From the NCBI RefSeq assembly GCF_003790525.1, contig NZ_CP033635.1: DNA of 64,000 nucleotides; one strand, 5' to 3'. The DNA comes from Escherichia coli (lineage in GTDB: Bacteria; Pseudomonadota; Gammaproteobacteria; Enterobacterales; Enterobacteriaceae). The position numbers and the translations under genes were made by a program. Below are positions 34,147-40,092 of this stretch, one piece after another. The notes below the pieces were generated by a model. That model was not told where the DNA came from and ran no database searches. It saw only the letters and a program-made list of their open reading frames with translations. Within the stretch, counting starts at the first letter, position 1. Every line of letters begins with the position of its first letter.

Positions 34147-34959
34147 TCAGCACTCAACAAACTGATGCTGTTCATTAAGACGATAGCGGACTCCGGCTCG
34201 AATATTGTTTTCACCTTCAATGGCGACGGCGAAGCGAACTCTTTCACCGTCATGATATGCCAGTGCGGCGCTTCCTCCTGGCCCGAGAATAATTGAGTCG
34301 ACCACGCCCGTGCTCACTACCGTTGAATTTTCACCGCTGGCAATGATGTGTACATTGTCGCCGCTGTTGGCAATTCTGGCGTTTGCGCCAAAGCTGGCGA
34401 TTTGCACCAGATCACCATTACTGGCGACATGACACCGTTCACCCAATGTACAAACGCGTACTCGCATTCCGGTATTCGCAATCCGACTACTATCTCCAGC
34501 GCTGCTTATCCGCGAAGAATTACCGGTTACAGCAACCCGTGCGCGTTCACCGGAGCTGCCAATGTGACTGTTAAAGCCGACACTTCCAATCCGCACGCTA
34601 TAACCCATACTGGCAATTTGCGCGGCATACCCAGCGGTTGCGATTCTGGCATTATCCTCACAACAGCCGATGCGAGCATGATCGTCGCTGCGGGCAAACT
34701 GACTGCAAAATGCTCTCTCTCCGGGATCTGTGGCCAGTTTTTGCATAGAAGAAACTTCCTGATGCGCGAAGTTTTCATCCGCCAGCCATTTTTTCCACGC
34801 ATACTCAACCAGACTCTCCGCCCAGTCCGTATATCCTTCCTCAATCAGTGCATGATGAATATCGGCATAACTACCGCCGCGTGGGAAATGGCGCAGGAAC
34901 CAGCGATACATCACCGCTCCGATACGCCATTCTCGCAGGTCTGCTCGTGTAATGATCAT
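34147..34959 (-). CDS. ydhT: uncharacterised nonapeptide-repeat protein, last gene of the ydhYVWXUT operon
   Basis: 270 aa ORF MIITRADLREWRIGAVMYRWFLRHF...; about 15 tandem 9-residue repeats in residues 95-229. Confidence 0.88.
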   Translation of the reverse strand: MIITRADLREWRIGAVMYRWFLRHFPRGGSYADIHHALIEEGYTDWAESLVEYAWKKWLADENFAHQEVSSMQKLATDPGERAFCSQFARSDDHARIGCCEDNARIATAGYAAQIASMGYSVRIGSVGFNSHIGSSGERARVAVTGNSSRISSAGDSSRIANTGMRVRVCTLGERCHVASNGDLVQIASFGANARIANSGDNVHIIASGENSTVVSTGVVDSIILGPGGSAALAYHDGERVRFAVAIEGENNIRAGVRYRLNEQHQFVEC

Positions 34960-34962
34960 TCG

Positions 34963-35748
34963 TTAGTGCCGGTGATAGCCATCGACCATGCTTTTAAAGG
35001 TTTCGTGTGGCGTACGCCCCGTGGTGCAAAGATAAAGATGACCGAAGATAAAAAAGAGACTTATAAATGCCAGAGCAAAATGCGCCTGCAATAACCAGTA
35101 TCTTACGCCAGGAAACACATCTCCCACGGCTTGCGGATAGAGACACAGCAGCCCCGTCAATAGTAACAACGGCAGCAATCCATACATGACACCAATATAG
35201 GCAACCTGCTGTAAGGGATTAAATTTAGACTGGGTTGTTGCCGGGAAAGGATGTTCTTCCCCCTGCATAATGCCAAACAAATAGAATCGCGTTTGTTTTG
35301 CCGCTCGCTCCAGCCACCCCTGACGACGAATGCGATAGTGGTGACCATTACCCCCAACGGCATTGATCAGAACAAAGCCAAGCCAGCATGCCAGTAACAA
35401 AAATCCGCAAACTTCATGCACCGCAACCAGACTTTTAACCGCAGTTGCGCCCACCAGCGCAAAGTGATTTATCAGCCCACTTGCCAGCAACAATACAAAG
35501 AGTAACGCATTCGACCAGTGCCATAATCTGACCGCTTTGCTGTAAAGATAAACCTTCTCACCATGGTCGGTGGCTGATTTCTTCACGCCACGAGCACGAA
35601 GCAAGGCATGCAGCCCCAGCACCAACCACATCCCTACCAGCAATAGTCCGGCAATGATCAACCACACCGGCCAAAATTGGGGAGTGAACTGTGGCACATA
35701 GTTCGCCAACTGGCTCTGAAACTGTTCAGCATGTTGCGACGGGTTCAT
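34963..35748 (-). CDS. ydhU: PhsC/NrfD-like integral membrane cytochrome b subunit
   Basis: 261 aa hydrophobic ORF; start overlaps ydhX stop. Confidence 0.88.
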   Translation of the reverse strand: MNPSQHAEQFQSQLANYVPQFTPQFWPVWLIIAGLLLVGMWLVLGLHALLRARGVKKSATDHGEKVYLYSKAVRLWHWSNALLFVLLLASGLINHFALVGATAVKSLVAVHEVCGFLLLACWLGFVLINAVGGNGHHYRIRRQGWLERAAKQTRFYLFGIMQGEEHPFPATTQSKFNPLQQVAYIGVMYGLLPLLLLTGLLCLYPQAVGDVFPGVRYWLLQAHFALAFISLFFIFGHLYLCTTGRTPHETFKSMVDGYHRH

Positions 35749-36413
35749 ACATTTTCCTTTTTAATCAAATGTTGACCGAACCGGCGATACAGGTGCGGTT
35801 TCCCGGCACCAGGTAGCTGATATTGATAGTATTTATTTTCCTGCAACCACGCCTGAATTTCTGGGCTATCTTCGCGACCAAAGATCAAGGCGTGTTCCGG
35901 GCAGGCGCTGACGCAAATGGGCGGAAAGCCTTTTGCCAGTCGGGACTCAGCGCAGAAATCACATTTATCTGCCACTTTAGTGACAGGGTTAAGGTAGCGA
36001 ACCTGGTAAGGACAAGCGCCAATGCAATAACTGCAGCCGATGCACTGCGATTTTTCTACCCGTACGATCCCCTGCTCATCACGCCACGATGCCGCTGTCG
36101 GACAAACGTCGATGCACGGAGCATCTTCGCAGTGCTGACATGACTGGCGAAAAAAGTGATACTGCGTTTCGTTGTCGTTATCGGTGACTGGAATGTGTGC
36201 TATCGATAAACGGCTTCCCTGAGCGGGGACGTGATTGGTTTTACGGCATGCGCGGGCGCAAATATTACAGCCATTGCACCGTGACTCGTCATGAATCATG
36301 GCATACCGAACTTTCTTTTCTTGCCTCGTGTTCGCTAACAGAGAAGACGCAGAACCAGTAAAAAAGATTACTGTTCCCATCCCCAGAACAAATTTGCGTC
36401 GAGTGAAGGACAT
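35745..36413 (-). CDS. ydhX: Tat-signal 4Fe-4S ferredoxin-like protein
   Basis: ORF 35745..36464; start placed at ATG 36413 (MSFTRRKFVLGMGTVIFF... twin-arginine motif), 222 aa; several CxxCxxCxxxCP motifs. Confidence 0.85.
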   Translation of the reverse strand: MSFTRRKFVLGMGTVIFFTGSASSLLANTRQEKKVRYAMIHDESRCNGCNICARACRKTNHVPAQGSRLSIAHIPVTDNDNETQYHFFRQSCQHCEDAPCIDVCPTAASWRDEQGIVRVEKSQCIGCSYCIGACPYQVRYLNPVTKVADKCDFCAESRLAKGFPPICVSACPEHALIFGREDSPEIQAWLQENKYYQYQLPGAGKPHLYRRFGQHLIKKENV

Positions 36414-36476
36414 CTGATTATCCCCTAATGCAGTGGCTGCAACTGTCCACCCTATCCATGACATCTCCCTGAAATT

Positions 36477-39230: not shown

Positions 39231-39250
39231 GATTTTTTCCTTTGCAAGAT

Positions 39251-39877
39251 TCACACAGTAATATCTTTCCACTCGATTATTTTTAACGCCCCTGTTGGGC
39301 AGGCGTTTGCGCATTCACCGCATAACACACATTTCGAGGATTTTTTACTTTCGGTATTTACGGTGGCCATCATCCACGGGCACGCCGTCGTACAGGCGCT
39401 ACAGCCAATACAACGTTTATGATCGACGGTAATACAGCCTTCTTTCTGTTGCCAGGTAATCGCACCAATCGGGCAGACATTCATGCATTGCGGTTCTTTG
39501 CATTGACGGCAGGTGTCCGCGGTATAGTTGAGATCGCCATACAGGCCACCACCAGAGCCAACCCCGTTATCGCCAAAGAAATAATTGCGATGGATTTTGA
39601 TACGGGAGAAGAATGTCCCTACTGAGCCATCGTTGAAGTTGGTACAAGAGATTTCACAGCGGTGGCAACCCGTGCATCGAGCACGTTGGGTCACCAGCAC
39701 TCCTTTGGGTGTATTTATCAACCCTACTGTGCCGCTATCAATATCTTCCTGTTTGCAACCCAAAAGTGACAGTAACGCAGGGGCAATTGTTAAACCAGCA
39801 AGGCCTTTTCCTGATATACGCAAGAATTCTAATCGCGTTAAGCCAATATCTAATAGTGGACGATCAACCGGGTTCAT
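39251..39877 (-). CDS. ydhY: 4Fe-4S ferredoxin-like protein
   Basis: 208 aa ORF with four CxxCxxCxxxCP clusters (MNPVDRPLLDIGLTRLEFLRISGKGLAGL...). Confidence 0.9.
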   Translation of the reverse strand: MNPVDRPLLDIGLTRLEFLRISGKGLAGLTIAPALLSLLGCKQEDIDSGTVGLINTPKGVLVTQRARCTGCHRCEISCTNFNDGSVGTFFSRIKIHRNYFFGDNGVGSGGGLYGDLNYTADTCRQCKEPQCMNVCPIGAITWQQKEGCITVDHKRCIGCSACTTACPWMMATVNTESKKSSKCVLCGECANACPTGALKIIEWKDITV

Positions 39878-40078
39878 TTATTTCGCATCCTCTTCGCAAA
39901 CACAGTGCTGACAATTCAGCAGATTGATATTAAGCATTCAACTAATACGCTGCTGACTCTGTCCTCAACACCAGATATTTTCCCTAACCTGATAGTGTAT
40001 GAGAAAAGATTTAACGCCGATAAACTAATCCTTTATGGTTAGGAGAAAAAATAATGTGATTATTCTGAGCCCTTAACA

Positions 40079-40092
40079 TTGATCGTTATCAA
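40079..40092. promoter_or_regulatory. FNR/CRP-class site TTGATcgttATCAA upstream of ydhY
   Basis: perfect match to FNR consensus TTGAT-N4-ATCAA in the AT-rich region about 200 bp upstream of ydhY start. Confidence 0.5.

Follow-up and report, generated by a model that had tools for sequence, protein, structure and literature searches.

Which reaction is catalyzed by a respiratory-type enzyme that is encoded in practically every Escherichia coli genome and whose substrate is still missing? This question is raised by the genes ydhY, V, W, X, U and T, which occupy positions 34147-39877 on the minus strand of the 64,000-nucleotide stretch of E. coli DNA analyzed here (RefSeq assembly GCF_003790525.1, contig NZ_CP033635.1; hereafter the window). 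They constitute the already described, oxygen-repressed ydhYVWXUT operon of E. coli, with b1674-b1669 as the K-12 counterpart (Partridge et al. 2008, Microbiology 154:608; Reschke et al. 2019, Biochemistry 58:2228), and a preliminary description of the window proved right except for a few details. We consider it probable that the genes form a single FNR-driven unit for a periplasm-facing, membrane-bound molybdoenzyme that works as a terminal reductase and passes electrons from quinol to its substrate. A periplasm-facing, membrane-anchored respiratory module had also been the preliminary assignment, and it agrees with the literature, where the operon is FNR-controlled and its product is a Class V tungsten oxidoreductase (WOR). 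The main points, i.e., the operon, its control by FNR, NarL/NarP and Fur, the molybdenum-containing bis-molybdopterin (bis-MPT) cofactor and the placement in Class V, are published. What sequence comparison appears to add is a conserved YdhY-YdhV-YdhW core, a winged-helix fold for YdhW, a phage-linked solenoid for YdhT and the loss of an arginine from YdhY exactly in the lineage that has YdhX. The questions that are left concern the role of YdhW, the signal of YdhY, the origin of YdhT and, above all, the substrate, which the preliminary description had called unresolved in line with the literature. They reach beyond E. coli: YdhV is 55-60% identical to catalytic subunits from Clostridia and Fusobacteria, and in a 2026 survey, clade 41, in which the Ydh system is placed there, outnumbers all other WOR clades in genomes from the human gut (PMC13328260).

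That the six genes lie on the minus strand where the preliminary description had put them was borne out by the map of open reading frames (ORFs) and by RefSeq, which names them ydhT, phsC (ydhU), ydhX, ydhW, ydhV and ydhY. The ORFs are tightly packed, and each of the six products spans its NCBIfam equivalog from end to end. Of the intergenic distances that had been given, those between ydhT and ydhU (3 bp), ydhU and ydhX (-4 bp; the ydhU start indeed overlaps the ydhX stop, in the sequence ATGA), ydhW and ydhV (3 bp, which the RefSeq start at 37115 would widen to 12 bp) and ydhV and ydhY (20 bp) stood. The remaining one, 12 bp between ydhX and ydhW, rested on the longest ORF with a start at 36464 and was rejected; it becomes 63 bp because the annotated, orthologue-supported ydhX start at 36413 (MSFTRRKF) replaces 36464. 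The start at 36413 is common to Proteus (MRVSRRKF) and Telmatospirillum (MTCTRRKF), and in one E. coli and one E. albertii locus the longest ydhX ORF itself begins at the equivalent position. Location on one strand, junctions of 3, -4, 63, 3 and 20 bp and a single conserved promoter region would all fit an operon, the terminator-like matches inside it are weak stems of 5 pairs, and the literature treats the six genes as one transcription unit (Myers 2013, among others). In this region, the window is 100% identical to E. coli SMS-3-5, and of the 5426 complete E. coli genomes, 5425 carry the locus, at 95-100% identity. Compared with the K-12 operon, the six genes and the FNR site at -42.5 are the same and the differences are at strain level only.

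The catalytic subunit is expected in YdhV (37128..39230, minus strand; 700 residues, no signal peptide). Its assignment to the pterin enzymes of the AOR/WOR family, already proposed in the preliminary description, is confirmed by the domains PF02730 (AFOR_N, E = 1.6e-67) and PF01314 (AFOR_C, E = 1.4e-47) and by a score of 1369 bits against NCBIfam PRK09849 (cut-off 868). Cys307, Cys310, Cys314 and Cys558 are invariant in 14 homologues and are the presumed ligands of a [4Fe-4S] cluster, and the CxxCxxxC motif aligns with residues 276-307 of the Pyrococcus furiosus AOR. The latter (PDB 1aor) and formaldehyde oxidoreductase (1b25) share AFOR_N, AFOR_C and this motif with YdhV, the similarity being strong only over the N-terminal 220 residues; unlike YdhV, they are soluble, cytoplasmic, tungsten-containing, ferredoxin-linked enzymes in which no protein residue coordinates the metal. 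The cofactor of YdhV is bis-Mo-MPT (Reschke 2019). A 2025 review puts YdhV in a clade that adjoins BamB, a protein of class II benzoyl-CoA reductase; in this clade Cys336 additionally coordinates the metal, and the second-shell residues typical of aldehyde oxidizers are missing. In our alignments, Cys336 does not vary among 14 homologues that are 55-80% identical, and BamB alone among the solved structures aligns with the YdhV profile without a break over residues 8 to 330; on the BamB side this alignment closes with residue 321, one before BamB Cys322, the residue sought as the counterpart of Cys336. BamB resembles YdhV in family and, following the literature, in the extra cysteine ligand and the missing second-shell residues, and differs in being a cytoplasmic, tungsten-containing protein of an electron-bifurcating complex that operates near -620 mV, whereas Ydh is linked to twin-arginine translocation (Tat) and to quinone. 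The 2026 classification places Ydh among the membrane-associated WORs of Class V, clade 41, function unknown, notes Tat signals on the small subunit and reports that the Cetobacterium somerae homologue CsWOR41 prefers tungsten and oxidized 0 of 46 aldehydes (PMC13328260). Aldehydes, which had been put forward among the candidate substrates, are therefore weak candidates, given the cysteine ligand of this BamB-side clade, the absent second-shell residues and the lack of aldehyde activity both for YdhV and for the Cetobacterium enzyme.

How would such an enzyme be connected to the respiratory chain? YdhX (35745..36413, minus strand) is a ferredoxin of 222 residues with four [4Fe-4S] motifs. It begins with the twin-arginine signal MSFTRRKFVLG, and the canonical TRRKF within MSFTRRKFVLGMGTVIFFTGSASSLLA, followed by a hydrophobic stretch, matches the pattern S/T-R-R-x-F-L-K, so that a signal is predicted just as the preliminary description had stated; the motif is also present in Proteus and Telmatospirillum. 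The best family matches of YdhX are NrfC, DsrO and TtrB, all under the curated cut-offs. YdhU (34963..35748, minus strand; 261 residues, named phsC) is a membrane cytochrome b with about five hydrophobic helices. It matches PF01292 (cytochrome b561/Ni-hydrogenase cytochrome b type) with E = 8.9e-31 and PRK15006, the thiosulfate reductase cytochrome B subunit, with 457.9 bits (cut-off 204), and more weakly hydrogenase and formate dehydrogenase cytochromes b (TIGR02125, TIGR01583). Of the earlier label "PhsC/NrfD-like," the first half holds and the second does not, no NrfD-type family being among the Pfam or NCBIfam matches. His77, His111, His223 and His237 are invariant in six sequences, among them homologues found in Syntrophaceae and Nitrospiraceae; two bis-His hemes would be expected to show this pattern, and on sequence grounds YdhU qualifies as a di-heme cytochrome b of the PhsC/FdnI type. 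A catalytic subunit combined with a four-cluster ferredoxin and a membrane subunit for quinol or quinone is the layout of PhsABC from Salmonella, formate dehydrogenase-N (Fdh-N) and DmsABC as well. Their catalytic subunits, however, belong to the dimethyl sulfoxide (DMSO) reductase family with molybdenum-bis-molybdopterin guanine dinucleotide (Mo-bis-MGD), whereas that of Ydh is an AOR-family bis-MPT protein, and in contrast to the PhsABC-type enzymes the Ydh catalytic subunit has a ferredoxin of its own, which puts two ferredoxins in series.

This additional ferredoxin is YdhY (39251..39877, minus strand), the small subunit or WorS, with 208 residues, four CxxCxxCxxxC motifs and 436.7 bits against PRK09898; together with the four cysteine motifs of YdhX, this substantiates the earlier designation of both proteins as poly-ferredoxins. 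In the YdhY N-terminus (residues 1-41, 39755-39877), the degenerate Tat-like sequence TRLEFLR precedes a hydrophobic stretch, which is followed by LLGC, a lipobox-like sequence ending at Cys41. We compared six loci in detail and 80 from a single scan of a genome collection, with neighbors classed by phmmer seeds; 61 of the 80 carry enough flanking DNA for counts. In loci without YdhX, a canonical RRxFL motif (e.g., TRREFLK) is present in all 50 full-length YdhY orthologues, whereas in loci with YdhX (a set numbered between L008 and L087) only one arginine is left, in TRLEFLR or TRQEFLR, in 23 of 23 cases. The hydrophobic stretch and the LLGC are retained and strongly conserved in these loci, and the lipobox-like sequence is conserved in Proteobacteria and in many Clostridia. 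The YdhX-bearing genomes form approximately one clade, and the arginine loss therefore counts as one or two events and not as 23.

The same comparison separates the operon into parts of different distribution. Conservation of YdhV is very high: the identity is 78-82% for homologues in the remaining Enterobacterales and in one alphaproteobacterium, and still 54-60% in Clostridia, Halanaerobiales, Fusobacteria and Spirochaetes. YdhY is encoded in 61 of the 61 loci with sufficient flanks and the complete YdhY-YdhV-YdhW core in 60 of them, across phyla, while YdhX and YdhU accompany each other only in Enterobacterales and Telmatospirillum and YdhT is confined to Enterobacterales (21 of 22 loci). 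In the 39 loci outside Enterobacterales, genes for FdhD (21 loci), TatA (23) and TatC (17) lie nearby, and in many loci from Firmicutes, Fusobacteria and Spirochaetes they adjoin the core. Hence the preliminary picture of one uniform six-gene module stands for the respiratory-type operon as such and fails for its evolution: judged by gene content across these genomes, the E. coli operon looks like a conserved Y-V-W core extended first by a PhsBC-like X-U module and then by ydhT. CsWOR41 offers a close comparison, with a large subunit of 58% identity and the same order of small subunit, large subunit and YdhW-type third gene. It prefers tungsten, has RR in the Tat motif, has TatA/TatC, FdhD and MoeA as neighbors and lacks YdhX, YdhU and YdhT, whereas E. 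coli Ydh prefers molybdenum, shows RL where CsWOR41 shows RR, and has X, U and T in addition. The C. somerae arrangement, with a third gene of unknown role and with Tat, FdhD and MoeA nearby, has already been described (PMC13328260); the generality of YdhW as a partner is added by the present analysis.

Several loci depart from the common arrangement. In loci from Halanaerobium, Anaerosolibacter and a Spirochaete (L007, 1410-7075; L030/L031, 3939-8716; L052, 14657-17931), the Y-V-W-FdhD-TatAC cluster adjoins genes for Pyr_redox_2, ApbE and polyprenyl synthase, and L007 additionally has a gene for an FMN-binding protein; this set looks like a kit for flavin-based extracytoplasmic electron transfer. 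Several Clostridia have two tandem YdhY-YdhV pairs and a single YdhW (L006, 860-3711 and 7249-10106; L040, 4467-7311 and 9257-12088; L057; L073), and often carry genes for a ferredoxin-like protein of 355-364 residues and for XdhC/MoCF. A gene for a YdhU-like cytochrome b sits between those for YdhY and YdhV (order Y-U-V-W, without YdhX) in a Syntrophaceae genome (L075, 1958-5575) and a Nitrospiraceae genome (L082, 8383-12112), which would be another means of tying the core to the membrane. In Candidatus Symbiopectobacterium (L054, 10088-14086), the operon is decaying, with ydhV in three pieces, ydhW missing and ydhX, ydhU and ydhT fragmented.

The third member of the core, YdhW (36477..37124, minus strand), has 215 residues, a net charge of -21 and neither a signal peptide nor a transmembrane helix. 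A Pfam-A scan returned nothing significant, neither for YdhW nor for YdhT, newer families (PF27195, PF27264) appearing only in precomputed tables. In the predicted structure, residues 41-121 and residues 125-213 each form a winged-helix unit, the two being arranged in tandem, with a predicted local distance difference test (pLDDT) value of 93.1. Word-indexed single-sequence and profile searches returned almost exclusively Escherichia and Citrobacter proteins, and the narrow distribution that they suggested was corrected by harvesting homologues via synteny: YdhW is present in all countable loci (60 of 61) except the decaying Symbiopectobacterium copy. The homologues are always acidic (median net charge -14), and DNA binding is therefore unlikely. 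Because YdhW always stands alongside a Tat-targeted Fe-S/pterin enzyme, co-occurrence points to an acidic, cytoplasmic, protein-binding adaptor that most likely helps specifically in the assembly or export of YdhY-YdhV. It did not fall into any of the families of Tat proofreading or maturation chaperones with which it was compared (TorD/DmsD/NarJ, NapD, HyaE/HybE, FdhE). Proteobacterial YdhW proteins possess a variable acidic N-terminal extension with one conserved motif (KRQWL, RRRWLL, KRRLLL, RRRFL; in E. coli around residues 19-29, positions 37040-37070; also read in loci L010-L028, L043, L056, L002 and L024), which resembles the n-region of a Tat signal without the hydrophobic stretch behind it. 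The motif is absent from YdhW of Firmicutes and Spirochaetes, and extension and motif fall in the same genomes as the arginine loss in YdhY.

When would the enzyme be made? The region upstream of ydhY (40044-40332) has 28.7% G+C, compared with 50.2% for the window, and contains the FNR site TTGATcgttATCAA at 40079..40092. In agreement with the preliminary description, this is a perfect TTGAT-N4-ATCAA palindrome, and TTGATCGTTATCAA is the only match in the window as against 0.07 expected. Myers (2013) reported ydhYVWXUT as directly activated by FNR, with a site at -42.5, a peak in chromatin immunoprecipitation (ChIP) and FNR-dependent expression, and cites Partridge 2008 for FNR, NarL and NarP control of the operon. 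From the center of the palindrome at 40085.5 and the published position of -42.5, the transcript is expected to start at about 40043. Nine upstream regions from Escherichia and Citrobacter were aligned; the FNR half-sites are invariant and the central four bases vary. CATTAT (40051..40056, minus strand), located 23 bp downstream of the palindrome in the conserved block CACATTAT, is the putative -10 hexamer; palindrome, half-sites, hexamer and the published -42.5 together describe a class II FNR promoter. Besides these, the conserved blocks comprise a Fur-box-like sequence, CCTAACC.TAAAGGATTA, ATC.GGTTAGG and the Shine-Dalgarno sequence.

Sites for the other regulators were found with differing clarity. 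A candidate NarL/NarP 7-2-7 site, TAACCATaaAGGATTA (40026..40041, approximately +2 to +17; 12 of 14 consensus matches), sits in the block CCTAACC.TAAAGGATTA that Escherichia and Citrobacter share; with 3 matches in the window and 2.58 expected, the pattern is not significant by count, and it is position and conservation in the sequence that make it a candidate. For Fur, a consensus scan at up to 3 mismatches gave no match near the ydhY promoter. By hand alignment, the conserved block tcAAATGATAATAAATATCag (AATGATAATAAATATCA) at 40125..40146 agrees with the Fur consensus at 14 of 19 positions, and this conservation and a published ChIP peak make it a candidate Fur box; the peak lies at the ydhY promoter, and the operon is reported to be Fur-regulated in strain CFT073. 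In published in vitro work, the sigma-S holoenzyme transcribed the ydhY promoter preferentially, and in one medium the promoter was 19-fold rpoS-dependent in stationary phase. A second promoter-like site (40113-40141, minus strand; ATGATA, 17 nt, TATAAT; 10 of 12 matches) overlaps the Fur-like block, and its TATAAT is not kept in the other Escherichia and Citrobacter sequences. The putative 5' untranslated region of about 166 nt (39878..40043, minus strand) ends in the invariant Shine-Dalgarno block GCGAAGAGGATGCGAAATAA. A riboswitch or other known RNA in this long leader was considered and ruled out by an Rfam scan of 33900-40900 at E <= 1, with zero matches, and by the unexceptional folding stability of a 176-nt leader relative to shuffled sequences (z = -1.0). 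CCTAACC (40037-40043, minus strand), at the expected transcript start, and its exact complement GGTTAGG (39983-39989), 54 nt downstream, are both kept in the Escherichia and Citrobacter sequences. The two may serve as additional NarL/NarP heptamers or form a stem in the leader, although the minimum-energy fold leaves them unpaired.

From the gene content, the families, the FNR site, the conservation and the molybdenum cofactor, which are established here or in the papers cited, we infer the subunit contacts, the location of YdhY and YdhV, the roles of YdhW and YdhT and the direction of electron flow as follows. One anaerobically induced minus-strand transcript would extend from about 40043 to beyond 34147, driven by the class II FNR promoter, repressed by NarL/NarP with nitrate or nitrite and subject to binding by Fur. 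YdhV, with Mo-bis-MPT, the Cys336 ligand and one [4Fe-4S] cluster, and YdhY, with four such clusters, would form the catalytic pair, which would be exported in folded form by the Tat system. Tat-exported YdhX, again with four clusters, and the di-heme cytochrome b YdhU would connect this pair to the menaquinone pool, YdhX and YdhY providing eight [4Fe-4S] clusters in series between YdhU and YdhV. YdhW would stay in the cytoplasm and act in the maturation of YdhY-YdhV, and YdhT would be a cytoplasmic beta-solenoid protein of an otherwise phage-borne family. Electrons would pass from quinol to the substrate, a non-aldehyde acceptor, in a terminal reductase possibly aided by the proton-motive force as in PhsABC. 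We favor this direction because of the regulatory pattern, the PhsC-like cytochrome, the BamB-like site and the linkage of some Firmicute loci to ApbE, polyprenyl synthase, Pyr_redox_2 and FMN-binding proteins. Activation by FNR combined with repression by nitrate is the pattern of the alternative terminal reductases of E. coli. A genomic survey from 2014 names the system "predicted Ydh reductase." A number of observations weigh against our reading. Export of YdhY-YdhV is not assured in E. coli in view of the single-arginine motif of YdhY; we know of no Tat proofreading chaperone with a winged-helix fold, and the fold of YdhW is generic, with nothing specific to chaperone function. Moreover, purified YdhV was inactive, no substrate was found for it and its [4Fe-4S] cluster proved labile or lost, and expression of the operon in MG1655 was below detection in one published study.

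The same architecture could also work with reversed electron flow, as a periplasmic dehydrogenase that takes electrons from a low-potential donor, such as an aldehyde or another reduced compound, and delivers them via YdhY, YdhX and YdhU to menaquinone, building up a proton-motive force by a redox loop like formate dehydrogenase-N and hydrogenase-1. Uptake hydrogenases, which donate electrons, are likewise induced anaerobically and repressed by nitrate, so that the regulatory pattern leaves the direction unsettled; characterized AOR/WOR-family enzymes mostly oxidize donors, and PF01292 cytochromes b serve Fdh-N and uptake hydrogenases, the cytochrome families of both of which YdhU matches weakly. 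We regard this as a serious rival and nevertheless as unlikely on balance, since none of the 46 aldehydes was oxidized by the Cetobacterium homologue and no substrate was found for YdhV, since the clade is devoid of the aldehyde oxidizers' second-shell residues and has a cysteine ligand as does BamB, a reductase, and since the closest named relative of YdhU is PhsC, the cytochrome b of a reductase. A different arrangement, to which we give very little weight, would leave YdhY and YdhV of Enterobacterales in the cytoplasm and let YdhU move electrons between periplasmic YdhX and cytoplasmic YdhYVW. The missing second Tat arginine in every YdhX-bearing locus and the absence of signal peptides from YdhV, YdhW and YdhT would fit, and a genomic survey predicted a cytoplasmic YdhV in some Eggerthellaceae. 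A periplasmic ferredoxin would, however, be purposeless without a catalytic partner on the same side, the conservation of the YdhY hydrophobic stretch and LLGC within this very clade argues for continued use, and subunits without a signal can be carried out by a partner, as is the case for DmsB and for hydrogenase large subunits. It is also conceivable, though rather improbable, that targeting has been rewired in the YdhX/YdhU lineage, where YdhY lost its second arginine and YdhW gained the acidic extension with its motif. If this is functional, YdhW would be a factor of a new, winged-helix kind for Tat export or assembly of AOR-family enzymes and YdhY-YdhV would take an unusual route: either YdhX would carry the pair into the periplasm or a signal split between two proteins would direct it there, and YdhY might be the first native Tat-dependent lipoprotein of E. 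coli.

A further alternative concerns YdhT (34147..34959, minus strand), a protein of 270 residues without a signal peptide, composed of an N-terminal helical domain (YdhT_N), a solenoid and a conserved C-terminal beta domain. Its earlier description as a repeat protein is correct: about 12 nonapeptide repeats form a beta-solenoid of 9-residue repeats in the predicted model (pLDDT 90.1). YdhT, and perhaps other members, could be a passenger of phage origin at the end of the operon, merely co-transcribed and without a part in the enzyme. Outside Enterobacterales, its relatives are encoded on phage contigs that also carry terminases, repressor-like genes and a DNA methylase, and the PHROGs that they match have no assigned function; furthermore, Telmatospirillum has Y-V-W-X-U without T, and T is lacking in all non-enterobacterial loci. 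We hold a mere passenger to be unlikely, because no more than a few bases separate ydhT from the preceding ydhU in 21 of the 22 loci of Enterobacterales, which span several families (Escherichia, Citrobacter, Proteus, Budvicia, Limnobaculum, Serratia and Brenneria), i.e., has been retained for long in a fixed position, and because its G+C content of 52% is like that of its neighbors. Full-length relatives with YdhT_N, perfect IGSSGDxAx repeats and the same C-terminal domain were seen at L088 (7001-7933) and L089 (4080-4916), among small early-type genes on terminase-bearing phage contigs, and in other relatives the repeat and C-terminal part is fused to macro-like or other N-terminal domains.

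The search for a substrate is narrowed by the cysteine-ligated, BamB-like site, the aldehyde activity not found and the PhsC-type cytochrome b. The comparative results also suggest why preparations of YdhV as a single subunit have been inactive; for reconstitution, YdhV should be combined with both YdhY and YdhW, and the cofactor probably has to be sulfurated in an FdhD-dependent manner.

The operon is flanked by fumD (ydhZ) on one side and, according to RefSeq, a frameshifted ydhS on the other. A strong terminator-like hairpin with a 12-pair stem after fumD (40300..40328, minus strand) bounds the promoter region and would insulate the ydhY promoter from upstream transcription. At the opposite end, the first terminator-like hairpin 3' of the ydhT stop (33924..33941, minus strand), a match to the consensus only and located inside the convergent ydhS, may be the end of the transcript. 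ydhS itself (32538-34135, plus strand), for an FAD/NAD(P)-binding protein, ends 11 bp from ydhT and is split into ORFs of 381 and 117 residues in different frames, in agreement with its RefSeq status as a frameshifted pseudogene in SMS-3-5. The best Fur-box match of the window, GTTAGTGATAATGATTATC (49828-49846, plus strand; 3 mismatches, 0.01 expected), is found some 10 kb from the operon, possibly, to judge by the gene order, in the promoter region of the suf operon.

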